NCBI GenBank assembly: GCA_944392275.1
Contig: CALXWA010000004.1
Location: 20,562-84,561 of the forward strand
DNA length: 64,000 nucleotides
From: an uncultured Alphaproteobacteria bacterium
GTDB lineage: Bacteria; Pseudomonadota; Alphaproteobacteria; RF32; CAG-239
Direction of reading: 5' to 3'
Part shown: positions 4,680-57,988 of the stretch, piece after piece
Layout of the letters: each line of letters opens with the position of its first letter
Position numbering within the stretch: position 1 is the first letter of the stretch
The notes under the pieces: generated by a model
What the model was told of the DNA's origin: nothing
The model's input: the letters and a program-made list of their open reading frames with translations, nothing else
The model's database searches: none
Position numbers and translations under genes: made by a program

Positions 4680-6521
4680 TTATTCCACAGTAACCGATTT
4701 TGCCAAATTGCGGGGTTGATCGACTTCTCGTCCTAAAGCATCGGCAATAAAATAAGCCAGAAGCTGTAGCGGAATATTTGCCAGTATCGGAGACAACGCC
4801 TCATCAATTTCTGGAATACGGATAATTTCATCAAAAATCGTTACTAAATGTTCATCTAAAGAAGACGTAACAGCAATCATTTTTGCATGACGAGCCTTAG
4901 CCTCTTCACAATTTGACAACATTTTATCATACGTAACGCCTCCGGGAATAAGGATTGCTAAAACCGGCATATTTTCATCCAACAAAGCAATCGGCCCGTG
5001 TTTTAACTCTCCGGCGGCATAACCGGTAGCATTAATATAGCTGATCTCTTTGAGCTTTAAGGCTCCTTCCATAGCTGTTGGCAAATTAACCCCTCTGGCC
5101 ATATAAACAAAACTTTTATATTGAGCCAAACGTAAAGCCTGCTCTTTAAGAGCGTCCGCCTTACTCAAAACCTCATCCATTTTAGCCGGTAGTTCCAATA
5201 ATTGTTGCTTTAACTCTTTTAGCTTTTTAAGATTAGAACCTGTTTGGTGTTCGGCCCAGGCAATGGCAAACAAGTATAAAGAAATCAACTGTGCCGTATA
5301 AGATTTTGTTGCAGCAACACTCACCTCAATACCGGCATTTAACGGAATAATATTGTCTGAATATCGGACAATGCTTGAATCAACACGGTTGGTTAATGTA
5401 AGAATATGAGCTCCTTTGGCTTTTGCTTGTTTAACCGCCGTAATGGTATCCGCCGTTTCTCCGGACTGTGAAATACCAATCGTTAGCGTATCGGCCCCCG
5501 TAATAGTATCCCGATAAATATATTCGCTGGCTGCCTCTACATTAACACTGACTTTTACCAGAGATTCCAAAAGATACTTGGCCACCATTGCAGCGTGCAA
5601 AGAAGTCCCGCAAGCAATAATCTCAACCTTTGTTTTTTTCAAAATCTCATTCCAATTAATTCCTTGCAAATTCAATGGGCTATCAACCGAGGATATTCTT
5701 TCGGATAACAGATTCCGCACAATATCAGACTGTTCATTAATCTCCTTAAGCATAAAATGTTTATAACCGCGTTTACTGATTGCCTCCGGACTAAAATTAA
5801 CCACCTCGGGATTTTTGTTTAAAATATGTCCGTCAAAATCCTTAACGGTAACTTGGTTTTGCGTCACAAGAGCCATTTCGCCATCATCTAAATAAATAAT
5901 TTTTTGTACTTTGCCGATAATGGCCGGAACATCACTGGCAATAAAATTTTCATGATCCCCAAGCCCGATAATTAACGGAGCATTCTTTCGGACCGCCACA
6001 ATCTTATCCGGCTCGTCCTGATGCATAATACAAAAAGCAAAAGCCCCCTTCAAAAGCCTGACAGCTCTGGCTACTCCTTGCTCTAAAGATTGAGCAAGAT
6101 GATATTCTCGATCCACCAAATGCGTTGCCACTTCCGTATCCGTTTCTGAAACAAAATGATACCCTTGTTTGATCAGTTCTTCCTTTAATTCCTTATAATT
6201 TTCAATAATCCCGTTATGAACCAAAACCAACTTTCCATCATTGGAACGGTGCGGATGAGCGTTTTCAACCGTCGGGCTTCCATGGGTTGCCCAACGGATA
6301 TGACCAATTCCCCGTGTTGAAGACAATAACTGTTTTTTATGTTGTTCTAAAACATCGCATAAATTACAGAGTTTTCCCTTAGCCTTAAAAATATCAATAT
6401 TTTCATTATCATTCAACGCAATACCGGCCGAATCATAACCTCTGTATTCAAGATTTTTCAGACCATTAATCAACTCTTCGGCAACCGCGTTGTTGCCGAT
6501 ATAACCAACAATACCACACAT
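4680..6521 (-). CDS. glmS: glutamine--fructose-6-phosphate aminotransferase (isomerizing)
   Basis: MCGIVGY N-terminal Cys amidotransferase domain, two SIS domains, and the C-terminal ...KSVTVE motif; 613 aa. Confidence 0.95.
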   Translation of the reverse strand: MCGIVGYIGNNAVAEELINGLKNLEYRGYDSAGIALNDNENIDIFKAKGKLCNLCDVLEQHKKQLLSSTRGIGHIRWATHGSPTVENAHPHRSNDGKLVLVHNGIIENYKELKEELIKQGYHFVSETDTEVATHLVDREYHLAQSLEQGVARAVRLLKGAFAFCIMHQDEPDKIVAVRKNAPLIIGLGDHENFIASDVPAIIGKVQKIIYLDDGEMALVTQNQVTVKDFDGHILNKNPEVVNFSPEAISKRGYKHFMLKEINEQSDIVRNLLSERISSVDSPLNLQGINWNEILKKTKVEIIACGTSLHAAMVAKYLLESLVKVSVNVEAASEYIYRDTITGADTLTIGISQSGETADTITAVKQAKAKGAHILTLTNRVDSSIVRYSDNIIPLNAGIEVSVAATKSYTAQLISLYLFAIAWAEHQTGSNLKKLKELKQQLLELPAKMDEVLSKADALKEQALRLAQYKSFVYMARGVNLPTAMEGALKLKEISYINATGYAAGELKHGPIALLDENMPVLAILIPGGVTYDKMLSNCEEAKARHAKMIAVTSSLDEHLVTIFDEIIRIPEIDEALSPILANIPLQLLAYFIADALGREVDQPRNLAKSVTVE

Positions 6522-8820: not shown

Positions 8821-8913
8821 CTCGAAACAAAAACATTTTTTTCTTTATTTTATTGTCCTACAACAGGGCTTTGCTTGTCAAACCCTTTTTTTTAAAAAAA
8901 AGAAAAATTTTAA

Positions 8914-8953
8914 TTGACAAAATAGAGAAAATTTGCTATGTATATTTTGTCAA
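8914..8953. promoter_or_regulatory. perfect 11-bp inverted repeat TTGACAAAATA-N18-TATTTTGTCAA bracketing the ATG at 8938
   Basis: Read directly from the sequence. The left arm also contains a TTGACA -35 hexamer, 17 bp upstream of TATGTA. A third half-site CTTGTCAAA lies at about 8874. Candidate operator or mRNA hairpin. Confidence 0.4.
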
Positions 8954-9330
8954 AAAGAACTATTATGCAAGTATTTACAGATCTATTCTTCTTTGCCACA
9001 CATTTTAATATGGATCCCCAAAAAATCCAATGGTGTATCTTAGAAGACAAAAGCAATCCATGTCGATTTTTACTTGGAATAAAAAACAAAGACTCAAAAA
9101 TCGTCATCAGTGTTGAAGAAAGAAAGTTGCGTCGCCTCAAAAGAGGAAAACTTGTAGCACTTGATGCTATCCTCAAAAAAAACAAAAGAGGATACAAGCT
9201 ACAAAGTATCAAACCACTCGTTGCCACCGGAAAAAAAATAATCCTCTCTTTCAAAGAAAAGGATTTAGCCGATTTGTACTACGACCAATGGTACGACGCA
9301 AGCATGGAACCAAAAAAGCACCGCTCTTAA
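8938..9330 (+). CDS. hypothetical small basic protein
   Basis: 130-aa ORF divergent from the 554-aa orphan; Lys/Arg-rich. Start uncertain: the ATG at 8938 lies inside the palindrome, and alternatives are the ATGs at 8965 and 9010. Confidence 0.4.
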   Translation: MYILSKRTIMQVFTDLFFFATHFNMDPQKIQWCILEDKSNPCRFLLGIKNKDSKIVISVEERKLRRLKRGKLVALDAILKKNKRGYKLQSIKPLVATGKKIILSFKEKDLADLYYDQWYDASMEPKKHRS

Positions 9331-9361: not shown

Positions 9362-9435
9362 TGGCTGCTTCGCCTGGATTCGAACCAAGATTAACGGAGT
9401 CAGAGTCCGCTGTCCTACCATTAGACGACGAAGCA
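9362..9435 (-). tRNA. tRNA-Gln (anticodon CTG)
   Basis: 74-nt cloverleaf on the minus strand: TGCTTCG acceptor with a U1-A72 pair, anticodon loop CTCTGAC, T-loop TTCGAAT, and 3' GCCA. Confidence 0.85.
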
Positions 9436-9572: not shown

Positions 9573-9902
9573 ATGAGAAGTTTTGGATTAATAATAATAC
9601 TGTTATCTCTTTGCTCATGTGCTTCATATTACTACAAAGGATATGACGAAAATTACTACGCCAGTAATTTTCCGGGTTACCAACACAAACGATACTATTA
9701 CCGAACCTACAAGCCCCAACCGGTCCAAAGTTATCCTATTCCCCAAACGCCCATCAGCGTTCGACCTTTAACAACACAAGATTTTTATATGTTGGATAAT
9801 CATCCGGAAGACTATTTTAATACACAAATGTGGGAAGCATCTTCCGGGATTGGCAGTTATGCCATTCACAATTTTTTTGAAAATATATTTGCCAGATTTT
9901 AA
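9573..9902 (+). CDS. Tyr-rich small lipoprotein, hypothetical
   Basis: Signal peptide with lipobox LSLCSC; mature part rich in Y, P and Q; 109 aa. Confidence 0.5.
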   Translation: MRSFGLIIILLSLCSCASYYYKGYDENYYASNFPGYQHKRYYYRTYKPQPVQSYPIPQTPISVRPLTTQDFYMLDNHPEDYFNTQMWEASSGIGSYAIHNFFENIFARF

Positions 9903-9911: not shown

Positions 9912-9948
9912 TCAAAAAAAAAGCCCCTCAAAAGAGGAGCTTTTTTTA
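9912..9948. terminator. Rho-independent terminator between convergent genes
   Basis: Hairpin AGCCCCTC-AAAA-GAGGAGCT (7 of 8 bp paired), flanked by an A-run and a T7 run. Confidence 0.55.
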
Positions 9949-9959: not shown

Positions 9960-12587
9960 TTAAATCTTACCGTAATAAGCATCCAAATACATCTGTTTAA
10001 TTTCCTTAATCAACGGATAAACAGGATTTGCTCCGGTACACTGATCATCAAAAGCCAATTCCGACAATTCATCCAAACCATCCAAGAAGGTCTTTTCATC
10101 AACCCCCCAAGCCTTGATAGAAGCCGGAATACCAATATCTTTTTTCAGTTTCTCAATAGCTTTGATTAAATGAGCGACTTTTTCTTCGTCATTTTTTCCG
10201 CCCAAATTCAACAAATCAGCAACACGGGCATATCTCTTCCGCCCTTCCGGATAATGGTACTGCGAAAAAGTTCCCTGTTTTGCCGGTTTTTCATTTGAGT
10301 TATATTTAATGACCTGAGAAATCATCAACGCATTGGCAATACCATGCGGAATATTATAAGCACTTCCGAGCTTATGAGCCATCGAGTGGCAAACGCCCAA
10401 GAAAGCTTGTGCAAAGGCCATTCCGGCCATGGTTGCGGCATAGTGCATATTTTCCCGAGCTTTAGGATTATTAGCACCATCATTAACCGATACCGCCAAA
10501 TTCTCAAAAATCATTTTAATTGCTTCCAACGCAATACCGTCGGTAAACGGTGTTGCCATAATAGAAGCCAAAGCCTCTAACGCATGCGTCAAAGAGTCAA
10601 TACCCGATGCCGCCGCCAAACCTCTCGGCATGGTTAAAACCAAATCCGGATCAATAATAGACATATTCGGACTCAAAGCATAATCGGCAATCGGATATTT
10701 AATATGTGTTGCCGAATCCGTAATAACCGCAAACGGTGTAACTTCTGAACCGGTACCCGATGTTGTCGGAATAGCAACCATATAAGCCTTAGAACCCAAA
10801 TCCGGGAACATACAAACACGTTTCCGAATATCCATAAAACGCATTGCCAAATCCTCAAACTTGACTTCCGGATGCTCATACATCAACCATACGATTTTTG
10901 CAGCATCCATCGGAGAACCCCCGCCCAAAGCAATAATAACATCCGGCTCAAAACTTCTGGCCATGACCAAAGCCCGATTAACCGTATCGGTGTCCGGATC
11001 CGGAGCAACTTCCGAAAAGATTTGGAAAGCAATTCCCATTTCTTCCAACACACTGGTAATTTTATTGGTATACCCAAGTTGGAACAAAGATTTATCCGTT
11101 ACAATCAAGGCTTTTTTCTTTCCGCACAATTCACGTAAAGCAAAACCAACGGCTCCTTGCTTAAAATAAATTTTAGGAGGAACTCTGAACCACAACATAT
11201 TTTCGCGTCTTTCTGCAACATTTTTAATATTAATCAAGTGTTTAACTCCTACATTTTCACTGGCCGCATTACCACCCCAAGAACCGCATCCCAAAGTCAA
11301 GGACGGATCCAAACGGAAGTTATACAAATCTCCGATACCTCCTTGAGAAGACGGAGTATTGATCAACAAACGACCGGTTTCAACAATCTTGCTAAAATAC
11401 TCGATTCGATCACGATTGTGGTCCGCCGTATACAAAACAGCCGTATGTCCTCTTCCGGCAAAATCAACCAAAGAAGCCGCATATTGAACACCTTCTTCAA
11501 AAGACTTAACCTTATACATCGCCAAAACCGGGGACAATTTTTCATAAGAAAATTCTTCTTCTTTTCCCACTTTTTGGGCTTCTCCGATCAAAACTTTCGT
11601 ATATTCCGGAACTTTTATACCGGCCATCTCGGCAATTTTGACCGCCGGCTGTCCGACAATGGCAGAGTTGAGCTTTCCACCTTGAATAATCGTCTGAGCA
11701 ACTTTTTCTTTTTCTTTTTTATTCAAGATATAAGCCCCGCGATATTCCAATTCTTCCTTAACGGCATCATAAACATCTTTATGAACAATAATCGATTGTT
11801 CTGAAGCACAAATCATACCGTTATCAAATGTTTTACTCATCAAAACGGAGCTAACAGCCATTTTAATATCAGCGGTTTCATCAATAATAGCAGGAACATT
11901 TCCGGCTCCGACACCTAACGCCGGCTTTCCGGAAGAATAAGCCGATTTAACCATTCCCGGACCACCGGTAGCCAAAATCATATTAATCCCATCATGGCTC
12001 ATCAAATGCTGTGTTAACTCAATTGTCGGATCTTCAATCCACCCGATAATATTTTCCGGAGCTCCGGCTTTAACGGCAGCATCTAATAACAGTTTTGCCG
12101 TATAAACCGTACATTTTTTAGCTCTCGGGTGAGGAGAAAAAATAATACCGTTTCTTGTTTTCAAAGCAATCAAAGTTTTAAAAATTGCCGTAGAAGTCGG
12201 GTTCGTTGTCGGAACAACCCCGGCAATAACGCCCAAAGGTTCGGCAATCTTTGTCAACCCATTGGTAGCATCCCGTTCCAAAATACCACAAGTTTTGGTA
12301 TGACGATATTTATTATAAATTTCTTCTGCGGCAAAATGATTTTTAATAACCTTATCTTCAACCACACCCATTCCGGTTTCTTCAACCGCCATTTTGGCTA
12401 AAGGAATACGAGCCGCATTGGCGGCAATGGCAACCGCCTCAAAAATTTTATCGACCTGTTCTTGCGAATAAGTTGCAAAAACTTTTTGAGCTTCATGTAC
12501 TTTGGCAATGACCGTATTTAAGTCATCAATACTTTTAGCTCCGTTGTCTGCAACAAGATTCGCCTCACAACAAGCTTGTTTTTTCAT
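9960..12587 (-). CDS. adhE: bifunctional acetaldehyde-CoA/alcohol dehydrogenase
   Basis: Full-length ALDH domain plus Fe-ADH domain, co-linear with E. coli AdhE (e.g. IPLAKMAVEETGMGVVEDKVIKNHFAAEEIYNKY). ORF 9960..12617 trimmed to the ATG at 12587 (MKKQACCE...), which has an AGGAGA RBS. Confidence 0.9.
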   Translation of the reverse strand: MKKQACCEANLVADNGAKSIDDLNTVIAKVHEAQKVFATYSQEQVDKIFEAVAIAANAARIPLAKMAVEETGMGVVEDKVIKNHFAAEEIYNKYRHTKTCGILERDATNGLTKIAEPLGVIAGVVPTTNPTSTAIFKTLIALKTRNGIIFSPHPRAKKCTVYTAKLLLDAAVKAGAPENIIGWIEDPTIELTQHLMSHDGINMILATGGPGMVKSAYSSGKPALGVGAGNVPAIIDETADIKMAVSSVLMSKTFDNGMICASEQSIIVHKDVYDAVKEELEYRGAYILNKKEKEKVAQTIIQGGKLNSAIVGQPAVKIAEMAGIKVPEYTKVLIGEAQKVGKEEEFSYEKLSPVLAMYKVKSFEEGVQYAASLVDFAGRGHTAVLYTADHNRDRIEYFSKIVETGRLLINTPSSQGGIGDLYNFRLDPSLTLGCGSWGGNAASENVGVKHLINIKNVAERRENMLWFRVPPKIYFKQGAVGFALRELCGKKKALIVTDKSLFQLGYTNKITSVLEEMGIAFQIFSEVAPDPDTDTVNRALVMARSFEPDVIIALGGGSPMDAAKIVWLMYEHPEVKFEDLAMRFMDIRKRVCMFPDLGSKAYMVAIPTTSGTGSEVTPFAVITDSATHIKYPIADYALSPNMSIIDPDLVLTMPRGLAAASGIDSLTHALEALASIMATPFTDGIALEAIKMIFENLAVSVNDGANNPKARENMHYAATMAGMAFAQAFLGVCHSMAHKLGSAYNIPHGIANALMISQVIKYNSNEKPAKQGTFSQYHYPEGRKRYARVADLLNLGGKNDEEKVAHLIKAIEKLKKDIGIPASIKAWGVDEKTFLDGLDELSELAFDDQCTGANPVYPLIKEIKQMYLDAYYGKI

Positions 12588-12696
12588 AAATTTTCTCCTA
12601 CACAATAAATTTTGCAACGTTAAAAATGTAACATTTAAAATCCGAATTAATAGTTAAAATTTAATAACAAACTGAGTTTTCCGATAACATTTTGTA

Positions 12697-13560
12697 TCAT
12701 TTATTTCTGTTTAAACGCTCCCAACGTTCTTGTTTTTTGCGTTCACGTTCTTCGGCTCTTTGTTTTGCCAATTCGGAAAAGCGAGATTTTCGATTATTTC
12801 TTTCTTCTAAAAGCTTAGCCTTTTTTTCTTCGCGTTTTTTCATACGTTCCCGAGCAAGTTTTTGAAAACGAGAAAGATTTTCTTCTTTCCGTTTTAACTT
12901 TTCCTGCTTTTTCTCTTCTCTTTCCCGTGCTCGTTCATAAGCTTTTTTCCGAAATGATGTTGTCGCTTGAGAACGTTCACGTTTAATCATTTCTTGCTTA
13001 AGTTGAGAGCGTTCTTCCTTAAGAGTTTTAGGCTTGTTTTTTTTGCTTTGTGAAGTGTTAGAAGCCCCCGCCTTCTTAGCACCTTCCTCTTGAGAAGGTT
13101 GACTATTGATTGTCTGCGGTTGTTTTTCCTCTACACTGGGCTGAAGAGTAGCATTTTCCTCTGGCTGAGGCTTAGGAGTAGAATTTTCACCTTCCACATC
13201 AAGAGAGTCTTTCTCTTCATCAGAAGGATTTACGCCCTCTTTTTTTTCATTTTCATTTTGAGGAGAAACATCGGCTAAGTTTTCCGATAAATTATTTTCC
13301 TCTCCTGATACCGGAGCATTTTTCTCAAGAATCTCTGCAGAACCCTCTTGTGGATCCGAATTTTCCTCTTGTTGCAAATTTTCCTGTTGTAATTTTTCTT
13401 CTTGAAGAGCTTCTTGTTTTTCTCTTTTTTCACGGGCTTGCCTTTGCCACATATTTTCCCCGGGAACCCAAGTCGGCTCCACGGCATAAACATCCAATTG
13501 CTTCGCATCAGCGTTAGCAACAATCGCAAACAACGTCAAAAAAGACCAAAAAAACTTCAT
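12697..13560 (-). CDS. secreted low-complexity E/K/Q-rich protein (coiled-coil-like), hypothetical
   Basis: Signal peptide (MKFFWSFLTLFAIVANADA). Acidic Q/E/S/P-rich middle, and a C-terminal array of ER/KK heptad-like repeats. The ORF-track start is a GTG at 13566; the first ATG is at 13560. Confidence 0.5.
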   Translation of the reverse strand: MKFFWSFLTLFAIVANADAKQLDVYAVEPTWVPGENMWQRQAREKREKQEALQEEKLQQENLQQEENSDPQEGSAEILEKNAPVSGEENNLSENLADVSPQNENEKKEGVNPSDEEKDSLDVEGENSTPKPQPEENATLQPSVEEKQPQTINSQPSQEEGAKKAGASNTSQSKKNKPKTLKEERSQLKQEMIKRERSQATTSFRKKAYERAREREEKKQEKLKRKEENLSRFQKLARERMKKREEKKAKLLEERNNRKSRFSELAKQRAEERERKKQERWERLNRNK

Positions 13561-13696
13561 AAACACCTCATTTCAAATATAATCATAAATTCATAAAAAC
13601 AAATGTAAAGACCTCAAACAAAATATACATAGAAAAAAACACAAATTGACATCTTACCCAAAACGTATAAAAATACGCAAAAAAAAGGAGAAACAA

Positions 13697-14092
13697 ATGT
13701 CATACAAACGCGTAGCCGCCGCCATAATCGTTCATAACGGAAAAATATTTATTGCCCAAAGACCGGAAGGAAAATCCTTAGCCCACTATTGGGAACTCCC
13801 CGGCGGCAAACAAGAACAAGGAGAGAGTCTGACCGAATGTTTGCACCGAGAACTATCCGAAGAATTAAATATTGATGCCGTCATTGGCGATTTTTTTATG
13901 CAATCAACCTTCGACTATGACTTTGGAACCATAGAACTCAACGCCTATTTTGCCTTTTTAAAAAATCAAACAGACATAAAATCAAACGAGCATGAAAACA
14001 CCGCTTGGGTAACACCGCAAGAACTTTCGCGTTACCAATTTGCACCGGCAGATATATCAATTATTGAAGCCTTAAAAAAAGCTAAAATTTAA
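13697..14092 (+). CDS. mutT: NUDIX hydrolase, MutT/8-oxo-dGTP diphosphatase-like
   Basis: Nudix box GGKQEQGESLTECLHRELSEELNI. Trimmed to the ATG at 13697, preceded by a GGAG RBS. Confidence 0.75.
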   Translation: MSYKRVAAAIIVHNGKIFIAQRPEGKSLAHYWELPGGKQEQGESLTECLHRELSEELNIDAVIGDFFMQSTFDYDFGTIELNAYFAFLKNQTDIKSNEHENTAWVTPQELSRYQFAPADISIIEALKKAKI

Positions 14093-16134
14093 TTTTTCAT
14101 AGCCAATTGCAAAGCTAAAGAAGCTTTGGTCAAGACAGAGGCATCATAAAGCAAAGCCACTTCTTCATCTCGACTAAGATCCAAAGCAACATTATGGTTA
14201 ATATAGTTTTCAAGCTTAATTTCAGCTTGTTTTAACACTGCGGGGACAAATTCGGGAGCCGGCCCATTTGAAGGCAACATAAAAATATGCAAAGCATTCA
14301 TGACCTTATCATGCAAAATCAATTCAATACCTTTATATTTTTCCTCCAACGCATAAAGTTTTTGCTTAAAACTCCGTGCCAAAACCAAAATCCCCGGCTC
14401 TTGAATTTCCTCCGGAATAATAAAGAACTTGTGATCAAAGCACCATTTTCCGGCCTGTGACCTTGAGGTCAACATTGAAAGAGGCACAGACAAAATTAGC
14501 CCGATTGTTATCGGAGAAATCCACCAAAACAATTCATAGGCATAAAAATAAACAATAACTTCCGTAGAAATTCCAAGCAACGTATGCCACTTATGTCTTT
14601 CCCATGCCAAAGACAAAGATGTTGAAGCATCTTCCCTGTTTTGTGTTTTCCATCCGGCATCTCTTCCGGCAAAAACATCAAACACAAACTTACTTTGAAA
14701 CATCATCATAATCGGAGCCATCAATGCACTGAAAACAATCTCCGTTAACACGGATTTTACGGCCCCGAAAGTTCCCCCGATTTTAGATTTAGAACGATTT
14801 TGCTTCAAATAAACAATCAAGCCTAAAAATTTTGGAAAGATTAACATAAACATAGAAATGACAAATAAAGCAATTGTTCCTAATTTATCAAAAACCGGCC
14901 AAGTCGGAAACAACGTTTTCCCCTCTGTAAAATAAACCGGAGGAAAAAACTCTTTACCCAAAGCAATTGCTAATCCAACCAACAAAAAGCTCAACCACAA
15001 CGGAGAAGACAAATAAGACATAATCCCAATAAGGAAATGGACCCGAGAAACCGGATTCAAGTGCCTGGAAACCAAAATTTTCATATGTTGAATATTTCCC
15101 TGACACCAACGTCTGTCACGTACGGCAAAATCAATCATCGTCGGCGGGCATTCTTCATAACTTCCCTTCAATTCGGGAAGCAACCAAGCATTATATCCGC
15201 CCCGACTAATCAAAGCCGCCTCCACAAAATCATGGCTTAAAATATGCCCGCCAAAAGGAGCCTTACCATCCAAAACCGGCAATCCGCAACACTTCATAAA
15301 AGCCTGCACACGAATAATGGCATTATGCCCCCAATAGTTACTGTCTCCTACTTGCCAATAGGCCAACCCGGCCGCCACAACCGGACCATAAACCTTTCCG
15401 GCAAATTGCTGCATACGAGCAAATAGCGAATGTTGGTTAACACACATTGGCGGAGCTTGAATAATTCCGGCATTTTCGTTGACTTGCATCAACGCCACCA
15501 TTTTCATGATTGTTTTGCCCTCAAGCAAACTATCGGCATCCAAAACAACCATAAAATCGTAATACGCACCCCATTTATGGCAAAAATCCTCAATATTACC
15601 GCTTTTTCTGGCAACATTTTTAGCCCGGCGTCGATAGTAAAGATTAATCCCCTCCGGCATCATCTTTTGCATATCAAGCCAAACTTTTTCTTCCTCAACC
15701 CATAATTTAGGATTGGTCGTATCACTCAAAATAAAAACATCAAAAGCCTTAGCTCCGCCTTCTTTGCTTAAACTTTCGGCAATAGCCAAAACATTCCCGC
15801 CGACACTACGAATATCTTCATTATAAACCGGAGCCAAAATGGCCGTTTTGGTATTGATTTTCACATCTGACGGCGGCCATTTTAAGCCAGGCACATGTTT
15901 TTTACTAAGGAGCTCTAAAAAACCCCATATACTTGAGCAAAAAAACAAAGCAATCCAACCAAAGGTCAAGATAAACAAAAAGATCATCAAAAACTTGGTC
16001 AGAAAATTACTATCCGATGGGATAACCTCAATCCACTTTAAGGTCGCCAAAAGTGTCAAAACTATCATCGAACCGAAAAGTTTAATTCTCCGATTTCGAA
16101 CACGACGAACATTAACAGCCGATACCCCCTGCAT
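14089..16134 (-). CDS. opgH: glucans biosynthesis glucosyltransferase H (GT2 family, polytopic)
   Basis: GT2 catalytic core (VLDADSLLEG...QGNIQHMKIL) flanked by multiple TM helices. About 680 aa. Paired with opgG upstream. Confidence 0.85.
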   Translation of the reverse strand: MQGVSAVNVRRVRNRRIKLFGSMIVLTLLATLKWIEVIPSDSNFLTKFLMIFLFILTFGWIALFFCSSIWGFLELLSKKHVPGLKWPPSDVKINTKTAILAPVYNEDIRSVGGNVLAIAESLSKEGGAKAFDVFILSDTTNPKLWVEEEKVWLDMQKMMPEGINLYYRRRAKNVARKSGNIEDFCHKWGAYYDFMVVLDADSLLEGKTIMKMVALMQVNENAGIIQAPPMCVNQHSLFARMQQFAGKVYGPVVAAGLAYWQVGDSNYWGHNAIIRVQAFMKCCGLPVLDGKAPFGGHILSHDFVEAALISRGGYNAWLLPELKGSYEECPPTMIDFAVRDRRWCQGNIQHMKILVSRHLNPVSRVHFLIGIMSYLSSPLWLSFLLVGLAIALGKEFFPPVYFTEGKTLFPTWPVFDKLGTIALFVISMFMLIFPKFLGLIVYLKQNRSKSKIGGTFGAVKSVLTEIVFSALMAPIMMMFQSKFVFDVFAGRDAGWKTQNREDASTSLSLAWERHKWHTLLGISTEVIVYFYAYELFWWISPITIGLILSVPLSMLTSRSQAGKWCFDHKFFIIPEEIQEPGILVLARSFKQKLYALEEKYKGIELILHDKVMNALHIFMLPSNGPAPEFVPAVLKQAEIKLENYINHNVALDLSRDEEVALLYDASVLTKASLALQLAMKN

Positions 16135-16150
16135 TTCAAATTCTCCGCTA

Positions 16151-16594
16151 TCAAACTATTTTTTTATGATGCAATACCGTCCGCAAAATACTCTTAGGTT
16201 TGGGTGTTACAAAAACCTGCGTCGGCATATTGGCGTATTTATATTGAGGAACAACAAAAAGCCTATGCTCATCAATATTTTTTTGCAAAAGAAGAGATTT
16301 TTCCTGCCCGCAAAAAAAATCATAGCCACAATCAGTCGAAAGATTTTGTGTCAAAAACAAATATTTAATCAAAGCAACTTGTTGCTCAGCATCCAAATTT
16401 TCATCGGCAAAATATTGTTGAGCTTTCCGCTTTGCAAATTGCGTTAAAAACGACATAATATCCTGTCCGGAGCTTTTATGATACGCATCAACCAAAAAGG
16501 CTACAATCTTGTCACAACCCTTTTCTTCAATCCCCATTTCTGACAAAAAGGCTCCAACAATATCTTCGGCACTCTGAATTTTTATGGCAACCAT
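16151..16594 (-). CDS. hypothetical protein encoded between opgG and opgH
   Basis: 147-aa ORF overlapping the opgG 3' end by 13 nt. No recognisable motif and no TM segment. Confidence 0.35.
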   Translation of the reverse strand: MVAIKIQSAEDIVGAFLSEMGIEEKGCDKIVAFLVDAYHKSSGQDIMSFLTQFAKRKAQQYFADENLDAEQQVALIKYLFLTQNLSTDCGYDFFCGQEKSLLLQKNIDEHRLFVVPQYKYANMPTQVFVTPKPKSILRTVLHHKKIV

Positions 16595-18156
16595 TGATAA
16601 CTCCAGACCTCAGAAACAACCTTGCCTTTATATTTTAAGACAACCCGCAATTCAGAAACATCTCGATCCGGCTGAAAGTCCAAATAAACTCTCGGAGCTT
16701 TTGTAATCGGATTAATCATTAAATGCTGTCCCTTAATTACACCTTTGCTAGCAGAAATTTCTGCGGTTAATTCACCGTTTTTAATCAGTTCATCAGCATT
16801 TTTCAATGGTCCGTCAACAAAATCAATAACAAATTTTCTCTTATCGTTTTCCAGCATTCCGGAAACACCGCCAACACCGGTATACGTAGAGGCAACCTTA
16901 AACAAACCGTTTTGAATCGGCACCTGCCAAGCCCAATGGAGACGATAAGAAAATTGATATTCATGTCCTTCTTTGATTTTCCGTTCCGGAACAAAAAAGG
17001 CAACAATATTATCATGGATTTCTTGCTGAGAAGGAATTTCAACCAATTGAATAATCCCTTTGCCCCAATTTTCCAAAGGCTCTACCCACACACTGGGACG
17101 CAACTCGTAAAAAGCTTCAAAATCTTGATAATGATCCGAATCTCTGTCTCTTTGCATCAAACCAAAACCTTTGGGATTATCATCAACAAACGAGCTAATC
17201 CGTAAATGTTTGGAATTATCAAGCGGCCGCCACAACCATTCATCATTTCCGTTCCATACCAAAAGCCCATCGCTGTCATGAACTTCGGGGCGATGATCAT
17301 CAAACTGATATTTGTTATTTTCACCAAACAAAAACATTGAAGTTAACGGAGCAACCCCTAACTTTTCAATATCTCTTCTCGGAAACAAAACCGCGTTAAC
17401 ATCAACGGTTGTGGATAATCCGGGTTGTATAATAAAACTATAAGCTCCCGTAATACTTGGACTGTCAAGCAAAGCATATAACTTAATTTCAGCGGCCCCT
17501 TCTTTAGGCTTTTCAATCCAAAATTCTTTAAAAATCGGAAATTCTTCTCCAATCTGCAGTGCCGTATTAATTGCCAACCCCCGAGCCGAAAGACCGTATT
17601 TTTGCCCCTGCCCTAACGCTCTGAAATAGCTGGCTCCCAAGAAAGAAATCAACTCATCATAATAAGATTCGGTATTAAGCGGATAATGCAACCGAAAACC
17701 GGCATAGCCGATTTTTGCAAACTCTTCGGTATTTAATTTATTTTTACCATAGTCAAAAAAAGCCGGAGAATATTGGATACGACGAACTTTTCCGTTCTCA
17801 ATTTCATTAATTTTTACCGAATTTTGGAAAATAAACCCTAAATGGAAAAGTTGCATTTCAAACGGCAAAGACTTTCCGTACCACGGACCGTTTTCACGAA
17901 CAAAGCGAATATCGCGGTATTGATCATAATCCAAATTTTTCAAACTTCCGGGCAAATCAGAAGCCGGCCCCACATAAGCTTTCCGAGCCAAATCCTTTGC
18001 CAAAGCCGTAATCTGTTCACTGGCAAAATTTCCCTTATCAACCGTAACACTCTTTGTTTTTGTGTTAACAACATACCACCACACTCCGCCGGCAAGAGCC
18101 ATCGCCAACAAAAGTCCTGTTCCGATTTTTAATCCTGTTTTAATTTTTCGATTCAT
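16582..18156 (-). CDS. opgG: periplasmic glucan biosynthesis protein OpgG/MdoG family
   Basis: Signal/TM N-terminus and MdoG-like sequence throughout (FRLHYPLN..., WVEPLENWGKG...). 524 aa. Confidence 0.85.
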   Translation of the reverse strand: MNRKIKTGLKIGTGLLLAMALAGGVWWYVVNTKTKSVTVDKGNFASEQITALAKDLARKAYVGPASDLPGSLKNLDYDQYRDIRFVRENGPWYGKSLPFEMQLFHLGFIFQNSVKINEIENGKVRRIQYSPAFFDYGKNKLNTEEFAKIGYAGFRLHYPLNTESYYDELISFLGASYFRALGQGQKYGLSARGLAINTALQIGEEFPIFKEFWIEKPKEGAAEIKLYALLDSPSITGAYSFIIQPGLSTTVDVNAVLFPRRDIEKLGVAPLTSMFLFGENNKYQFDDHRPEVHDSDGLLVWNGNDEWLWRPLDNSKHLRISSFVDDNPKGFGLMQRDRDSDHYQDFEAFYELRPSVWVEPLENWGKGIIQLVEIPSQQEIHDNIVAFFVPERKIKEGHEYQFSYRLHWAWQVPIQNGLFKVASTYTGVGGVSGMLENDKRKFVIDFVDGPLKNADELIKNGELTAEISASKGVIKGQHLMINPITKAPRVYLDFQPDRDVSELRVVLKYKGKVVSEVWSYQWLP

Positions 18157-33065: not shown

Positions 33066-33155
33066 AAAAACTCCGTTAACAAAAAATATTTTACAATAAT
33101 TTTACCTTTTGCTGATATGAATATAATAATAAATCATACCAAAAGAGGAATAAAA

Positions 33156-34316
33156 ATGGATACCGCTCTTTGTCTGCACAACGCTACGGTTTTAACGGGA
33201 TTTTCCGTTATGAAGAAATGTGCGGTTTATATAAAAGATAACTATATTGCCGATGTTTATAATGAAGAGCGATTTAAACAAAAAAAATTTGATAGCAAAG
33301 TCAAGATTATTGATGTCAAAGGAGCTTATGTTGCTCCCGGATTAATTGATACCCATATTCACGGAATTGGCGGATACAGTGCCGATGATGCCGATTATAA
33401 ATCCATTTTGGCAATGTCCGAGATTTTAGCTCGCTATGGCGTAACATCTTTCATCCCAACGCTTTGTGCCGCCCCGGAAAAAGAATTGGTAAAAAAAATA
33501 AAAGCCGTCGTCAAAGCCATGGGTAAAGAAAAAGGGGCTCACATTCTGGGAATGCACCTGGAAGGACCTTTTTTATCCCCTGACCGAATTGGAGCCCAAG
33601 ACCGCTACGGTATTTGTGATGTTGACTTAAAACTCCTTGATCGTTTATGGAAAGCCTCCAAAGGTAAAATCATTAATATGACCCTTGCTCCCGAACTCAA
33701 AGGGATGAGAGAATTGGCCTTAAATTGCATAAAAAAAGGGATTATCATGCAAGCCGGGCATACCAATGCCACTTATGAGCAAATGATAGAGGGAATGCAA
33801 GTAAACATCATGCATGTTACCCATCTTTTCAATGCCATGAGACCTCTCCATCATCGAGAACCCGGAGTTGTCGGAGCCGCTTTAATTCACCCCGAAATTT
33901 CATGTGAAATTATTGGCGACGGAATTCACGTTAACCCAAACTTAATTGCCTTGTTAATGAAAAGCAAACCGCTCAGCCAATTAGTCTTAATAACCGATGC
34001 TTTTGACTTGGCCAAAACCGAACTGCCTCCGGATTCTCCCTACTATTTTGATGAATGCTTCAAAAGAAAATGTGATGATGTGATTGTCGGCTCCGGAATA
34101 TCCATGTTTGACGGTTTACGCAATCTAGTCCGCTATGAAGTTCCGGTAGAAAAAGCAATTCGGATGGCATCATCAAACCCTGCCAAAATAATGAAACAAG
34201 AGAACAAAGGTTTCATCATCCCGGGCTATGATGCAGACATTATCATATTTGATAAAGAATTCAAAAACGTACAAACAATCATTAACGGACAATTTATAAA
34301 GGACGCAAAACCATGA
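33156..34316 (+). CDS. nagA: N-acetylglucosamine-6-phosphate deacetylase
   Basis: Amidohydrolase motifs (GLIDTHIHG, HLEGPFL). Trimmed to the ATG at 33156, preceded by an AGAGGA RBS. Overlaps nagB by 4 nt. Confidence 0.85.
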   Translation: MDTALCLHNATVLTGFSVMKKCAVYIKDNYIADVYNEERFKQKKFDSKVKIIDVKGAYVAPGLIDTHIHGIGGYSADDADYKSILAMSEILARYGVTSFIPTLCAAPEKELVKKIKAVVKAMGKEKGAHILGMHLEGPFLSPDRIGAQDRYGICDVDLKLLDRLWKASKGKIINMTLAPELKGMRELALNCIKKGIIMQAGHTNATYEQMIEGMQVNIMHVTHLFNAMRPLHHREPGVVGAALIHPEISCEIIGDGIHVNPNLIALLMKSKPLSQLVLITDAFDLAKTELPPDSPYYFDECFKRKCDDVIVGSGISMFDGLRNLVRYEVPVEKAIRMASSNPAKIMKQENKGFIIPGYDADIIIFDKEFKNVQTIINGQFIKDAKP

Positions 34317-35104
34317 GACTGATTATCCAAAACAACTATGACGACTGTTCCCGCTGGGCCGCTCAATATGTCGCTTATAAAATAAAAGCTTTTCGCCCGA
34401 CGGCAAAAAAACCTTTTGTCCTCGGTCTTCCAACCGGTTCCACCCCTTTAGGAATGTACAAACTCTTAATTGAGATGTATCAACAAAAGAAACTCTCTTT
34501 TGAGAATGTTGTGACCTTTAACATGGATGAATATATTGGTCTCGATGGCAAGCACCCGCAAAGTTACCGCCACTTTATGTACGAAAATTTCTTTAACCAT
34601 GTTAACATTCCTGCGGCCAATATCCATATGCTAAACGGAATGACCAAAGATTATGCCAAAGAATGCCAACTTTATGAAAACGCAATCAAAAGCTATGGTA
34701 AAATCCATCTTTTTATCGGTGGTGTCGGAGAAGACGGACATATCGCCTTCAATGAGCCGGGATCATCTCTGAGTTCCCGTACGCGTGTAAAAACTCTCAC
34801 CAAAGAAACAATTGCCGCTAATTCTCGCTTTTTTGACAATGACCCGACAAAAGTTCCGCAAACCGTCTTAACCATTGGGATCGGAACCTTTATGGATGCC
34901 GAGGAAGTCCTGTTGATTGCAACCGGAAACAAAAAAGCACGAGCCATTCACCATGCCGTTGAAGGAAGTATCAACCACATGTGGCCCATAAGCATTACAC
35001 AAATGCATCAACATGGGATTATCCTTTGTGATGAAGCGGCCACAAGCGAGCTCCGTGCCGATACGGTTCGCTATTTCAAAGACATAGAAGCACAAAAATT
35101 CTAA
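34313..35104 (+). CDS. nagB: glucosamine-6-phosphate deaminase
   Basis: NagB signature (LGLPTGSTPLGMYKLL...FNMDEYIGL...GEDGHIAFNEPGSS); 263 aa. Confidence 0.9.
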   Translation: MRLIIQNNYDDCSRWAAQYVAYKIKAFRPTAKKPFVLGLPTGSTPLGMYKLLIEMYQQKKLSFENVVTFNMDEYIGLDGKHPQSYRHFMYENFFNHVNIPAANIHMLNGMTKDYAKECQLYENAIKSYGKIHLFIGGVGEDGHIAFNEPGSSLSSRTRVKTLTKETIAANSRFFDNDPTKVPQTVLTIGIGTFMDAEEVLLIATGNKKARAIHHAVEGSINHMWPISITQMHQHGIILCDEAATSELRADTVRYFKDIEAQKF

Positions 35105-42571: not shown

Positions 42572-43255
42572 CTATTTGGTCGATTTAACCGCCATTTTTT
42601 GGTTTGCCAACAATCCTTCAGAAATCTGTAAATTTGTCATAATCAAACTATCCAAAGCTTTATCATTGACTTTATGAACATTTTTACCAATTTCTATCGT
42701 TTTGGAGGAAATATAATCCGCCAATTTAATCAGATTAGATTTTGTTTCATGAGGCATTTGGGTATTTTTGTCATTCACCATGGTTTTTATATAAACCCAT
42801 AAGTTCATGTTATTATCCAAAGCCGCAACCAAATCTTTGGCATCTTTATTTTCTTTAGCATTGGATAAATCGACGGCACATTTCAATAACGAAAAGGCTT
42901 CTTCTTTTGCCAAAGAATTTTTAACGGATTCCAACAAACCTTCTGAGATTTGCATGTTAATATTAATCAGGTTTTCATAATCTCCTTTTGTCATCCGTAT
43001 CCCTTTACTCAAGGTCAAACGTTCGACATATTTGGAAAGACTGATTAAATTCTTTTTAATTTCTTCCGGAAGCAAGTTCTTTGCGTTTTTGAGTGATGTT
43101 TCTATCCCAACCCATAATTTTAAATTTTCATCCAAAACCGTCAACTTAAACACTTCGTCATTGCTTTCGGCAGCCTCGGACAAATGTCTGGCATAATTAA
43201 GCAATACGGCAGCTTCTTTTTCGGCCTGTCTGATTTGATTTGTGGTATTTACCAT
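42572..43255 (-). CDS. flaF: FlaF-like flagellar regulatory protein, internally duplicated (two tandem FlaF-like modules)
   Basis: Two homologous halves, each with L-x-x-N-x-x-LW, a LS/ADY(V/I) segment and NLQISEGLL. Single FlaF proteins are about 110-120 aa. Directly downstream of flgH. Trimmed to the ATG at 43255, preceded by an AAGGAAG RBS. Confidence 0.5.
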   Translation of the reverse strand: MVNTTNQIRQAEKEAAVLLNYARHLSEAAESNDEVFKLTVLDENLKLWVGIETSLKNAKNLLPEEIKKNLISLSKYVERLTLSKGIRMTKGDYENLININMQISEGLLESVKNSLAKEEAFSLLKCAVDLSNAKENKDAKDLVAALDNNMNLWVYIKTMVNDKNTQMPHETKSNLIKLADYISSKTIEIGKNVHKVNDKALDSLIMTNLQISEGLLANQKMAVKSTK

Positions 43256-43492
43256 GTTTGCTTCCTTACAATACATATATTTTTTATTTTAATCTAATAA
43301 GCAGATGCAGATTTTAAACCCTTGCGGTTAAAATTTATTTAAAGACCTGCCTTTAATCGATTGGGGAAATAACTAAAGACAGGTCTTTGGGGAATTTGGC
43401 AGCTTTAGGGAAAAGGCTGCCTTAATTTTAAGAAAAAATGGGGAGATTTTTTCTTAAAAACACTTCATAATAATAAGAAAGGGTTTAAGTCT

Positions 43493-55736: not shown

Positions 55737-55832
55737 TTATGCCCCTTTCGGATAACAATCTTTATACAATATACTAAAAAATTTACAAAAAAGAAGCAAT
55801 AAATTAAAAATAAACTAGACTCGGGAAAAATA

Positions 55833-55848
55833 TTAACATATGATTAAC
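55833..55848 (+). promoter_or_regulatory. CtrA-box TTAA-N7-TTAAC upstream of gcrA
   Basis: The exact full consensus TTAACATATGATTAAC lies about 40 nt upstream of the gcrA ATG. Direct CtrA control of gcrA is known in Caulobacter. Confidence 0.55.
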
Positions 55849-55886
55849 CTCAATATAAAAACATTTTGTTTGAAGGAGAAATAAAA

Positions 55887-56414
55887 ATGGCGTGGACAGA
55901 TCAAATGGTCGAAGACCTCAAAAAAATGTGGAAAGAAGGTCTGACAACGGGAGAAATCGGAAAACGGCTTAACGTATCCAAAAACTCTATCGTTGGAAAA
56001 GTTCACCGTCTGGGCTTATCAGGACGTCCTTCACCAATTAAGAAAAAAGAAGAGACCACCCCAAAAGCAACAGAAAACAAATCTGCTTCTCCTAAACCGG
56101 CTCCGGAAAAGGCGGCACCTTCCAAAGCTCCGGCCAAAACAAATGTAAAACAAAAACCAGCAGAAACCCCAAAAGACAATTTTCAAACCTGTCTCAACAA
56201 AGAATTAGAAAAAAACTTTCTTTCTCCCAACAATAAAGAGAAGAAAAACAATGGCTTTGTTACGCTGACGGACTTAGACAGCCATACCTGTCGTTGGCCG
56301 ATAGGTGACCCCAAAGATGAAAACTTTCATTTTTGCGGCAAAAAGGTTAAAATCGGCCAAACATATTGTGAAGAACACGCGGCCATTGCCTATGTGAAAC
56401 CTTCTAAAAAATAA
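55887..56414 (+). CDS. gcrA: cell-cycle regulator GcrA
   Basis: MAWTDQMVEDLKKMWKEGLTTGEIGKRLNVSKNSIVGKVHRLGL, a flexible linker, and the conserved C-terminal domain. Trimmed to the ATG at 55887, preceded by an AAGGAG RBS. Confidence 0.85.
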   Translation: MAWTDQMVEDLKKMWKEGLTTGEIGKRLNVSKNSIVGKVHRLGLSGRPSPIKKKEETTPKATENKSASPKPAPEKAAPSKAPAKTNVKQKPAETPKDNFQTCLNKELEKNFLSPNNKEKKNNGFVTLTDLDSHTCRWPIGDPKDENFHFCGKKVKIGQTYCEEHAAIAYVKPSKK

Positions 56415-56428
56415 CAAAATATTAACTT

Positions 56429-56457
56429 TTGACATGATATATTACAGACAATAGTAA
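56429..56457 (+). promoter_or_regulatory. candidate sigma-70 promoter TTGACA-N17-TAGTAA for motAB
   Basis: A consensus -35 hexamer with a 17-nt spacer, about 25 nt upstream of the motA ATG. Confidence 0.35.
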
Positions 56458-57984: not shown

Positions 57985-57988
57985 TATT

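Follow-up and report, generated by a model that had tools for sequence, protein, structure and literature searches.

Was the adhE gene of this uncultured gut bacterium acquired recently by horizontal transfer, and what does its presence on the same DNA as a nifJ-type pyruvate:ferredoxin oxidoreductase (PFOR) gene say about how the organism lives? The preliminary description of the window, by which we mean the whole 64-kb stretch of DNA that was analysed, had read the two genes as the signature of an anaerobic fermentative lifestyle, and the location of adhE close to a tRNA gene, in a region with orphan genes, as compatible with horizontal acquisition. We consider it very probable that AdhE and PFOR are resident enzymes of an anaerobic lineage of gut Alphaproteobacteria. 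The features on which this discussion relies are collected in Table 1.

Table 1. Features of the window, with the evidence for each assignment.
Feature	Position	Strand	Evidence
glmS, biosynthetic glutamine-fructose-6-P transaminase	4680..6521	-	TIGR01135 756 bits
tRNA-Gln (CTG)	9362..9435	-	ARAGORN and Rfam
putative lipoprotein ORF, 109 aa, between adhE and tRNA-Gln	9573..9902	+	ORF
terminator-like hairpin and T-run, directly 3' of adhE stop	9924..9937	-	consensus scan
adhE, bifunctional acetaldehyde-CoA/alcohol dehydrogenase, 875 aa	9960..12587	-	NF010378, Pfam, motifs, structure matches
Glu/Lys-rich secreted-looking protein, 289 aa, upstream of adhE	12697..13566	-	without family match
NUDIX hydrolase, conserved adhE neighbour	13646..14092	+	PF00293 on identical gene in L081
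opgH - 147-aa ORF - opgG (periplasmic glucan synthesis)	14089..18156	-	translations; conserved block beside adhE
nagA-nagB, GlcNAc-6-P deacetylase and GlcN-6-P deaminase, overlapping genes	33117..35104	+	TIGR00221, TIGR00502
FlaF-family flagellar regulator, two FlaF stretches	42572..43276	-	PF07309 99.9 bits
gcrA, alphaproteobacterial cell-cycle regulator (lineage marker)	55866..56414	+	PF07750 133 bits
nifJ-type pyruvate:ferredoxin (flavodoxin) oxidoreductase, N-terminal 850 aa out of about 1186	61451..64000	+	TIGR02176, motifs, homologue P0121

Two conserved enzymes and their host chromosome

First, we confirmed that adhE codes for the full-length bifunctional enzyme named in the preliminary description. 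The open reading frame can be started from a TTG (9960-12617) or from an ATG (9960-12587). Since AdhE homologues mostly comprise 872-876 residues (full range 869-891), we take the ATG at 12587 to be the right start. The protein scores 1403 bits against the NCBIfam profile NF010378 (curated equivalog cut-off 951), covers profile positions 9-867 of 872, and contains an Aldedh domain (aa 26-423) followed by Fe-ADH and ADH_Fe_C domains (aa 480-881). Its catalytic cysteine motif NGMICASEQ (aa 256-264) is kept in all 79 of the 79 aligned homologues. GGGSPMD is found at aa 555, and the iron ligands are provided by DSLTH at 664 and HSMAH-x9-H at 734. The protein also matches the solved AdhE structures 8uhw, 6ahc and 6tqh over its full length. 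The placement of the hairpin behind the stop codon suits a terminator of adhE, with the reservation that the count of such sites in this region is not above chance.

The PFOR gene runs for 850 codons without a stop and continues past the window end. Although it covers no more than profile positions 1-833 of 1167, this part reaches 1292 bits with TIGR02176 (curated equivalog cut-off 911). Both CxxCxxCxxxCP [4Fe-4S] motifs of the ferredoxin-like domain that had been pointed out earlier are indeed present, CIQCGKCSLVCP at aa 697 and CTGCGICVSACP at aa 753; of the third cluster, only the first CxxC (GACAGCGE, aa 825) lies inside the window. A homologue of 1186 residues (P0121) is about 100% identical across these 850 residues and carries the PF02775 thiamine pyrophosphate (TPP) domain, from which we infer that the window PFOR would contain the remainder of this domain beyond residue 850.

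GcrA, the FlaF-family protein and the record titles of the nearest genomes all assign the chromosome to the Alphaproteobacteria, as had been proposed. With NF009435, the FlaF-family protein scores slightly below the cut-off (86 versus 91 bits). The other neighbours named earlier were recovered as rpoZ-spoT, nagA-nagB and glmS; the supposed lolCDE operon turned out to be two genes, LolD and one LolC/E-type permease. The closest relatives are dozens of genomes of uncultured Alphaproteobacteria (CAG:495, Ca. Scatocola and the like), assembled from gut samples of humans, ruminants and chickens. CAG:495 is the nearest with a name (AdhE 80% identical), and Ca. Scatocola is placed in the Rhodospirillales by NCBI. 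Record titles that name gut metagenomes of human, roe deer, yak and chicken bear out the suspected host association. The window is best explained as a chromosome segment of an uncultured, flagellated, low-GC (~39%) gut alphaproteobacterium, and "Proteobacteria bacterium CAG:495", the "uncultured Azospirillum sp. UMGS" genomes and Ca. Scatocola are members of the same radiation. We take this radiation to be the GTDB order RF32, family CAG-239. AdhE and PFOR can be called rare in the class only if this large gut radiation is left aside.

Every relative is a metagenome-assembled genome, which raises the concern that assembly or binning joined adhE or the PFOR gene of another organism to alphaproteobacterial DNA. 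The probability of such an artefact is negligible: both genes lie on one 64-kb sequence of uniform composition together with GcrA, FlaF, SpoT and flagellar genes, two ENA samples independently yielded assemblies with an identical adhE locus (L081 and L082), and the synteny described below is repeated in many independent assemblies.

Origin of adhE and the PFOR gene

The adhE gene is native in composition. Its GC3 is 0.365, with 0.367 as the mean of the window (z = -0.04), its codon-usage distance has a z of -0.54, and across metagenome-assembled genomes the GC content of adhE follows that of its own locus from 0.31 to 0.53, as expected for amelioration across hosts. The GC3 of the PFOR gene is equally inconspicuous (z = 0.2). 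A codon-usage distance of 0.21 (z = 1.3) might mark it as a foreign gene, but in this strongly skewed window other genes on the plus strand are equally distant (uvrD 0.218, nagA 0.212, nagB 0.218), so that we attribute the value to strand skew and reject a foreign origin on this ground.

The neighbourhood of adhE is conserved across species. The order opgG-orf147-opgH-nudix-adhE is kept in L034, L008-L011 and L015, with block genes that are 65-73% identical, and the nudix-adhE pair alone is kept in nine further loci, so that the NUDIX gene adjoins adhE in 15 related loci. The names OpgH and OpgG come from reading the translations and from glycosyltransferase Pfam matches in L081. The tRNA-Gln gene lies near adhE in four relatives (L034, L006, L012 and L021). 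The 109-aa putative lipoprotein occupies the equivalent position in L034 (54% identity) and is found near adhE also in L006, L017 and L021; the 289-aa protein has a 40%-identical counterpart at the equivalent position in L034. The shallow relationships of adhE, opgH and opgG are concordant. At depth, AdhE and OpgH arrange the three species groups in slightly different orders: L015 is the farthest by AdhE, not by OpgH. With these neighbours, adhE is present in L034, L008-L011, L015 and others, a result biased towards presence by the retrieval of these loci through AdhE itself, which leaves genomes without adhE unsampled.

In one related species the PFOR gene likewise sits among core genes. There it lies between a spoT-acpS-lepB-rnc-era cluster and bamA/lpxD/fabZ, with a PFOR that is 89% identical and flanking core genes that are 45-74% identical. 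PFOR is 87-90% identical in many relatives labelled "[Alphaproteobacteria bacterium]". One AdhE and one PFOR homologue are each listed with a longest contig of 1,885,872 bp, presumably one and the same contig.

To place AdhE among its relatives we built a neighbour-joining, midpoint-rooted tree from the window protein and its closest genome matches (80 kept, 78 placed). The best 29 matches and 50 of the 78 loci in the tree are gut metagenome-assembled genomes labelled Alphaproteobacteria or Proteobacteria (one "uncultured bacterium"). Together with the window and four Endomicrobiia, these 50 form a clade with bootstrap 100, inside which the window belongs to a subclade of 23 members, also with bootstrap 100. 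The 24 sequences outside the clade are cyanobacterial, Halanaerobiales, PVC, Nitrospirales and others, and the Endomicrobiia are the only foreigners nested inside it. The nesting of AdhE within Firmicutes or other anaerobes, which the preliminary description expected in the event of a horizontal transfer, was not observed in this tree of the closest 78 matches. For PFOR, a library of representatives at 50% identity gave a best match of 59% identity and mostly fragments. Three of the ten PFOR representatives had named clusters, two "Alphaproteobacteria bacterium" (51% and 45%) and one Ca. Lightella (44%). This family is too conserved for such a library to yield a usable labelled tree.

These data speak to the suggestion that adhE arrived recently, together with orphan genes, on a genomic island integrated at tRNA-Gln. 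Several observations invite this idea. Only 525 nt separate the adhE stop codon from the tRNA, close to the 500 nt first estimated; the flanking ORFs of 554, 130 and 289 aa are real and have no Pfam or PHROG match, as the preliminary description had implied; and AdhE is patchily distributed, with a documented gain by horizontal transfer in Endomicrobia (PMC11257099). Nonetheless, we regard a recent import as very improbable. No integrase-like ORF was found between 6.4 and 13.7 kb, and a scan for att-like direct repeats around adhE returned short chance-like matches only, none derived from the tRNA. Moreover, adhE sits 5' of the tRNA, while islands normally integrate on the 3' side. It is on that 3' side that the only piece variable between the window and L034 is found, and this piece consists of the 554-aa/130-aa ORF pair and not of adhE. 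Native GC3 and codon usage, the arrangement of adhE, lipoprotein and tRNA-Gln with nudix-opgH-opgG in species whose flanks are only 65-73% identical, and the position of AdhE inside its well-supported subclade argue in the same direction. For adhE, alphaproteobacterial branching and native composition are the very observations that the preliminary description had named as speaking against a transfer. Hence, adhE and the nifJ-type PFOR gene look native, that is, like long-established genes of this lineage rather than recent imports.

In the course of this comparison we also considered a recent exchange of the hexapeptide acetyltransferase, which is 94% identical to its L034 counterpart at the protein level (glmS: 76%). 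Its DNA is only ~86-88% identical and the differences are mostly synonymous, which points to purifying selection instead, and the exchange was rejected.

A different question is whether the ancestor of the gut radiation received adhE, and perhaps the PFOR gene, from anaerobes of another phylum and has passed them on vertically since. This reading departs from residence in the lineage in the deep origin of the genes only. The sister sequences of the AdhE clade, at 63-68% identity, come from scattered phyla (cyanobacteria, Halanaerobiales, Victivallales, Planctomycetaceae, Lentimicrobiaceae) and not from other alphaproteobacterial orders, and the nested Endomicrobiia show that AdhE of this type does move between phyla. 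To our knowledge, AdhE is generally absent from cultured aerobic Alphaproteobacteria. The alphaproteobacterial relatives are without exception members of gut-associated radiations, so that the data fully accommodate an ancient transfer into their ancestor, and nothing contradicts it directly; direction and timing are not readable from an unrooted tree of top matches. On the other hand, some further Alphaproteobacteria possess PFOR/NifJ as well (Rhodospirillum relatives, Pleomorphomonas; PMC4967309, Table 1), which makes vertical descent of PFOR plausible. In our judgement, the chances for and against such an ancient transfer are evenly balanced.

Predicted metabolism

Having assigned AdhE and PFOR to the resident gene set, we turn to their possible function. 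Sugars would be converted by glycolysis to pyruvate, from whose oxidation by PFOR acetyl-CoA, CO2 and reduced ferredoxin would result. With two NADH, AdhE would then reduce some of this acetyl-CoA to ethanol by way of acetaldehyde, regenerating NAD+, and ferredoxin would presumably be re-oxidised by [FeFe]-hydrogenases, as reported in related genomes. Through NagA and NagB, GlcNAc-6-P could enter the same route in the form of fructose-6-P. We infer these steps from the established biochemistry of the AdhE and PFOR families; the direction of flux, ethanol as the end product, strict anaerobiosis and amino-sugar use are best read as predictions.

An anaerobic fermentative lifestyle, as originally proposed, fits both enzymes and agrees with related gut genomes (PMC4967309, PMC6431628). 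Gut metagenomic alphaproteobacteria have been described as "invariably" possessing PFO, [FeFe]-hydrogenases and their maturases (PMC4967309), and "Azospirillum sp. CAG:239" is reported to have no terminal oxidase at all and to count among the strict anaerobes (PMC6431628). For the window organism, of which 64 kb of genome are covered, the term "strict anaerobe" would be an extrapolation from these relatives. Few proteins of these genomes are as conserved as AdhE and PFOR, which show 85-92% identity as compared to 45-74% for neighbours. The organism might instead lead a facultative or microaerophilic life, or its AdhE might serve mainly in oxidation (use of ethanol or acetaldehyde, or acetaldehyde detoxification) and not as a fermentative sink. 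The reactions are reversible, the facultative anaerobe E. coli has the same enzyme (6ahc), and MsrA and a nitroreductase-like protein in the window suggest some oxidative stress. We nevertheless find this unlikely, given the anoxic gut as source, the reported lack of terminal oxidases in related gut genomes (PMC6431628), and an oxygen-labile PFOR alongside AdhE, the two being conserved at 85-92% beside neighbours at 65-73%, as would fit core catabolic enzymes.

The fermentation of amino sugars had been suggested on the basis of nagA-nagB and glmS. The former pair is present (NagA 372 bits against TIGR00221, NagB 412 bits against TIGR00502, both above cut-off), and no transporter or kinase gene is adjacent to it. 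GlmS is biosynthetic and no pointer to amino-sugar catabolism. Amino-sugar fermentation is only weakly suggested. Scanned with Rfam for riboswitches and leader elements, the surroundings of adhE, glmS and nagAB yielded four tRNAs only.

That gut Alphaproteobacteria include anaerobic fermenters is already known, and for annotation purposes the present observation is correct but ordinary. Beyond annotation, where it matters little, it confirms a conserved module, predicted to lead from pyruvate via acetyl-CoA to ethanol, in a large, common and uncultured group; the conservation of AdhE and PFOR is useful for niche inference or for the design of cultivation conditions. Should the broader donor-pool proposal given in the last paragraph hold, and should the alphaproteobacterial AdhE and PFOR in addition prove sister to ADHE and PFO of anaerobic eukaryotes, the two enzymes would be relevant to the question of whether eukaryotic anaerobic energy metabolism descends from the mitochondrial ancestor.

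Relation to known systems

The window AdhE has the two-domain architecture of E. coli AdhE (PDB 6ahc/6tqh; query 19-874 aligned to chain 7-867), and 8uhw, 13he and 7dag are further solved AdhE structures. The catalytic cysteine, GGGSxxD and the four iron ligands of known AdhEs are all found in it. We detected no structural difference; an N-terminal extension of ~18 residues lies outside the aligned region, and the host lineage, a gut alphaproteobacterium, is different. In sequence it resembles filament-forming AdhEs (6ahc, 6tqh); spirosome formation and the conversion of acetyl-CoA to ethanol are putative properties. The window PFOR matches the homodimeric enzymes of Moorella thermoacetica (6cin, 980 bits) and Desulfovibrio africanus (1b0p, 935 bits), with which it shares the single-chain build, domains I-II-III, the ferredoxin domain and, as far as it reaches, the TPP domain; the comparison extends over residues 1-850 out of about 1186.

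As for organisms, the closest described cases are Azospirillum sp. CAG:239/260 and Acetobacter sp. CAG:977/267, gut "Rhodospirillales" with PFO (Degli Esposti et al. 2016, 2019). These species are reported to contain [FeFe]-hydrogenases and maturases, and CAG:239 to lack terminal oxidases. AdhE is not mentioned in these papers (PMC4967309, PMC6431628). The AdhE of "uncultured Azospirillum sp. UMGS" genomes falls into the same clade as that of the window, whose nearest named relative, CAG:495, represents a different genus-level group from the Degli Esposti species. For the metabolism of RF32 or CAG-495, the literature found consists of microbiome-association papers only.

Endomicrobiellum, endosymbionts of termite-gut flagellates, has been concluded to have obtained AdhE by horizontal transfer from other phyla (Mies et al. 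2024, PMC11257099). This AdhE is 67-68% identical to that of the window and nested in the gut alphaproteobacterial clade (bootstrap 100), and Endomicrobiellum belongs to another phylum (Elusimicrobiota). Here the alphaproteobacteria may have been the donor pool and not the recipient, which provides a concrete candidate donor clade. A broader proposal would place AdhE, and also PFOR, in the ancestor of a broad and deep anaerobic, host-associated alphaproteobacterial radiation that served as donor pool for Endomicrobiellum, among others; we think it quite unlikely.

Genes for AdhE and PFOR

The preliminary description had reported a full-length bifunctional adhE and a nifJ-type PFOR in the window, and both assignments are borne out. 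The adhE gene is an uninterrupted ORF, for which mechanical ORF calling reaches upstream as far as a TTG at 12617. Since homologues are 869–891 aa long (mostly 872–876), the ATG at 12587 chosen initially is the correct start, giving a protein of 875 aa. With the NCBIfam model NF010378 ("bifunctional acetaldehyde-CoA/alcohol dehydrogenase"), whose cut-off is 951 bits, this protein reaches 1403 bits. It contains the Pfam domains Aldedh, Fe-ADH, and ADH_Fe_C, and aligns end to end with the solved AdhE structures 8uhw, 6ahc, and 6tqh. It also keeps the motif with the catalytic cysteine, NGMICASEQ (aa 256), the GGGSPMD motif (aa 555), and the iron ligands in DSLTH (664) and HSMAH-x9-H (734). The PFOR gene runs for 850 stop-free codons up to the window end. 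With TIGR02176, the model for pyruvate:ferredoxin (flavodoxin) oxidoreductase (cut-off 911), the encoded fragment reaches 1292 bits. The two CxxCxxCxxxCP motifs begin at aa 697 and aa 753, and the fragment matches the PFOR structures from Moorella and Desulfovibrio. A homologue of 1186 aa (P0121) is ~100% identical across these 850 residues. AdhE and PFOR are ordinary members of well-known families.

Features of the window discussed in the text
Feature	Position	Strand	Remark
Hexapeptide-repeat acetyltransferase	6539-7057	-	upstream of glmS
554-aa ORF	7156-8820	-	no Pfam/PHROG match
130-aa ORF	8938-9330	+	no Pfam/PHROG match
adhE	9960-12587	-	
289-aa protein	12697-13566	-	directly upstream of adhE; no family match
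FlaF-family protein	42572-43276	-	234 aa, two FlaF stretches
Change of gene orientation and GC skew	~55000-64000		
AT-rich patch	~58000-60000		GC 0.27-0.30
158-aa ORF, "membrane-flanked domain" protein	58565-59041	+	phrog_3707
IS1595-family transposase	59078-59986	-	185 bits
PFOR	61451 onward	+	

The 289-aa protein starts with what resembles a signal peptide, and its body is repetitive and extremely rich in Glu, Lys, and Gln. Its counterpart in L034, the nearest of the AdhE-bearing loci from our genome scan (AdhE 92% identical), is 40% identical and occupies the same position.

Residence of adhE beside tRNA-Gln

The position of adhE about 500 nt from tRNA-Gln had been read as compatible with horizontal acquisition. 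The distance is right (525 nt from the adhE stop to tRNA-Gln(CTG)), and a recent acquisition fails on composition, synteny, island marks, and phylogeny. With a GC content of 0.414 and a GC3 of 0.365, adhE is native among the window's genes for proteins of 200 aa or more (mean GC3 0.367 ± 0.051; z = -0.04), and its codon usage is less distant than average from that of the remaining window (z = -0.54). This test is able to detect foreign DNA here, because the patch with the IS1595 transposase stands out (GC3 z = -3.1). PFOR is also native in GC3 (z = 0.2). In codon usage its distance, 0.21, is somewhat larger and was discarded as a foreign mark; it matches uvrD, tig, nagA, and nagB (0.20–0.22) and every other plus-strand gene of this strongly skewed window. 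The IS1595 patch lies between motB and a histidine phosphatase gene, with PFOR ~1.4 kb downstream of it. No other DNA in the window is compositionally foreign, and the patch is probably a mobile-element insertion.

The block opgG-orf147-opgH-nudix-adhE, in which orf147 encodes 147 aa, recurs in L034, L008–L011, and L015, and nudix adjoins adhE in nine further species. On the other side of adhE, L034 contains the same order as the window: a small lipoprotein ORF, tRNA-Gln, hexapeptide acetyltransferase, and glmS. In L006, L012, and L021, tRNA-Gln(CTG) also lies a few kb or less from adhE. The species sharing this synteny are well diverged (OpgH/OpgG 65–73% identical versus 80–92% for AdhE), in a sample that was retrieved via AdhE itself and hence consists of adhE-bearing relatives. 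Shallow groupings (the window with L034; L008–L011) agree across AdhE, OpgH, and OpgG; the deep order of three species groups differs slightly between AdhE and OpgH.

A scan around adhE and tRNA-Gln found no integrase and no tRNA-derived direct repeats. The adhE gene is located 5' of the tRNA. The 554-aa/130-aa ORF pair (7156–9330) lies 3', between tRNA-Gln and the acetyltransferase, and is the sole inserted segment relative to the otherwise collinear L034. A diverged copy (43% and 50% identity) sits beside tRNA-Gln in L012. Should the site contain a small variable insert at all, the ORF pair would be the candidate, rather than adhE. The neighboring acetyltransferase, preceded by a conserved intergenic block, is 94% identical to its L034 counterpart (glmS 76%). 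The underlying DNA is ~86–88% identical with mostly synonymous changes, which argues for strong purifying selection on this small protein.

Phylogeny leads to the same result. A neighbor-joining tree of AdhE from the window and 78 loci (850 columns, Kimura distances, 100 bootstraps) contains a branch with bootstrap 100 that places all 50 gut MAG proteins, the window, and four Endomicrobiia on one side. The 24 proteins on the opposite side come from cyanobacteria, Halanaerobiales, Victivallales, Planctomycetaceae, Lentimicrobiaceae, Nitrospirales, and Ozemobacteraceae. Within its side, the window AdhE belongs to a 23-member subclade (bootstrap 100). Alphaproteobacterial orthologues and native composition are the two observations that the preliminary description had itself set against horizontal transfer; with both seen for adhE, a recent transfer of this gene fails.

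The top 120 PFOR homologues are 87–100% identical. Those with names are called pyruvate:ferredoxin (flavodoxin) oxidoreductase and attributed to "[Alphaproteobacteria bacterium]", P0184 being attributed to "[bacterium]". In a related species, PFOR lies ~6 kb from spoT-DUF2062-acpS-lepB-rnc-era, a cluster also present in the window, with bamA, lpxD, and fabZ on the other side. This PFOR is 89% identical to that of the window, compared to 45–74% for the flanking core genes (AcpS 45%, Rnc 64%, Era/LepB 74%). The AdhE homologue P0045 and the PFOR homologue P0147 each come with a longest contig of 1,885,872 bp, and presumably lie on one and the same contig.

Lineage and fermentative lifestyle

The window (GC ~39%, with a strong, uniform, negative GC skew) encodes the alphaproteobacterial regulators GcrA and FlaF, flagellar genes (flgF, flgG, flgA, flgH, motAB), and OpgGH. 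The neighbors named initially, namely GcrA, the FlaF-family protein, RpoZ beside SpoT, NagA-NagB, and GlmS, were all verified; the presumed three-gene lolCDE proved to be only two genes, for LolD and a single LolC/E-type permease. The FlaF-family protein, adjoining flgH-flgA-flgG-flgF, is about twice as long as usual (roughly 115 aa) and looks like a tandem-domain FlaF. Gene orientation turns from nearly all minus (1–55 kb) to plus (gcrA, motAB, PFOR), and the negative skew fades to about zero. The cumulative skew flattens at its minimum at 61–64 kb, so a replication origin may be near or just beyond the window end.

The AdhE scan covered one genome per species from 185,579 bacterial and archaeal species; 80 loci were kept, and 78 were placed in the tree. 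The best 29 matches and 50 of the 78 tree loci are metagenome-assembled genomes from human (Hadza, HGUT, UMGS), roe-deer, yak, and chicken gut. They are labeled uncultured Alphaproteobacteria, Proteobacteria, "Azospirillum sp.", or Azospirillaceae, and include Proteobacteria bacterium CAG:495 and Ca. Scatocola faecigallinarum (Rhodospirillales in NCBI taxonomy). The window's AdhE and its locus recur identically in two independent ENA assemblies (L081 and L082). We take CAG-495 to belong to order RF32, family CAG-239, in GTDB. RF32, CAG-239, and CAG-495 have been used as order, family, and genus of gut taxa (PMC9253600). A host-associated alphaproteobacterium is therefore the right reading of GcrA/FlaF and the gut-MAG relatives.

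In the PFOR reaction, pyruvate yields acetyl-CoA, CO2, and reduced ferredoxin; AdhE reduces acetyl-CoA to ethanol using 2 NADH. The two enzymes are sensitive to oxygen and characteristic of fermenters. Their conservation between species, far above that of their neighbors, fits a role as central catabolic enzymes. Gut metagenomic alphaproteobacteria (Azospirillum sp. CAG:239/260 and Acetobacter sp. CAG:977/267) have been found to "invariably" contain PFO, [FeFe]-hydrogenases, and all maturases (Degli Esposti et al. 2016, PMC4967309), and CAG:239 was classed as a strict anaerobe without any terminal oxidases (Degli Esposti et al. 2019, PMC6431628). The anaerobic gut lifestyle of this lineage is thus already described; neither paper mentions AdhE, which NCBI has already annotated in such MAGs (P0102). 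Because hydrogenase, pfl, pta-ack, and respiratory genes are all absent from the 64-kb window, it is from these relatives that we infer strict anaerobiosis.

The suggestion that this organism ferments amino sugars is weak. The nagA and nagB genes are genuine and overlap as an operon, with no transporter or kinase gene adjacent to them. NagA also acts in cell-wall recycling, and glmS, though present, encodes a universal biosynthetic enzyme that carries no catabolic information. Overall, the initial observations on adhE, PFOR, and their neighbors are confirmed. Of the interpretation, the parts on lineage, host association, and anaerobic fermentation are supported, and the part on horizontal acquisition at the tRNA is not.

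Deep origin of AdhE

Across the MAGs, adhE GC tracks locus GC from 0.31 to 0.53, which implies that the gene has long resided in each lineage. Sister sequences to the gut alphaproteobacterial clade belong to scattered phyla (63–68% identity), a patchy distribution that is usual for AdhE. In this unrooted tree of top matches, the chances are about even that the ancestor of the gut radiation acquired adhE long ago. On a more novel but improbable reading, the radiation would be an old reservoir from which AdhE/PFOR genes were passed on, and it might then bear on where the anaerobic metabolism of eukaryotes came from. AdhE from Endomicrobiia (L030–L032 and L053; 67–68% identical to that of the window) nests among the gut alphaproteobacterial proteins in a 12-member subclade (bootstrap 100). 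This is the one clear inter-phylum event, and it points to a transfer that would have involved these Alphaproteobacteria. For Endomicrobiellum, Mies et al. (2024, PMC11257099) report that AdhE was acquired horizontally from a different phylum and that further genes were taken up from uncultured Alphaproteobacteria; our tree agrees with the reported AdhE transfer.
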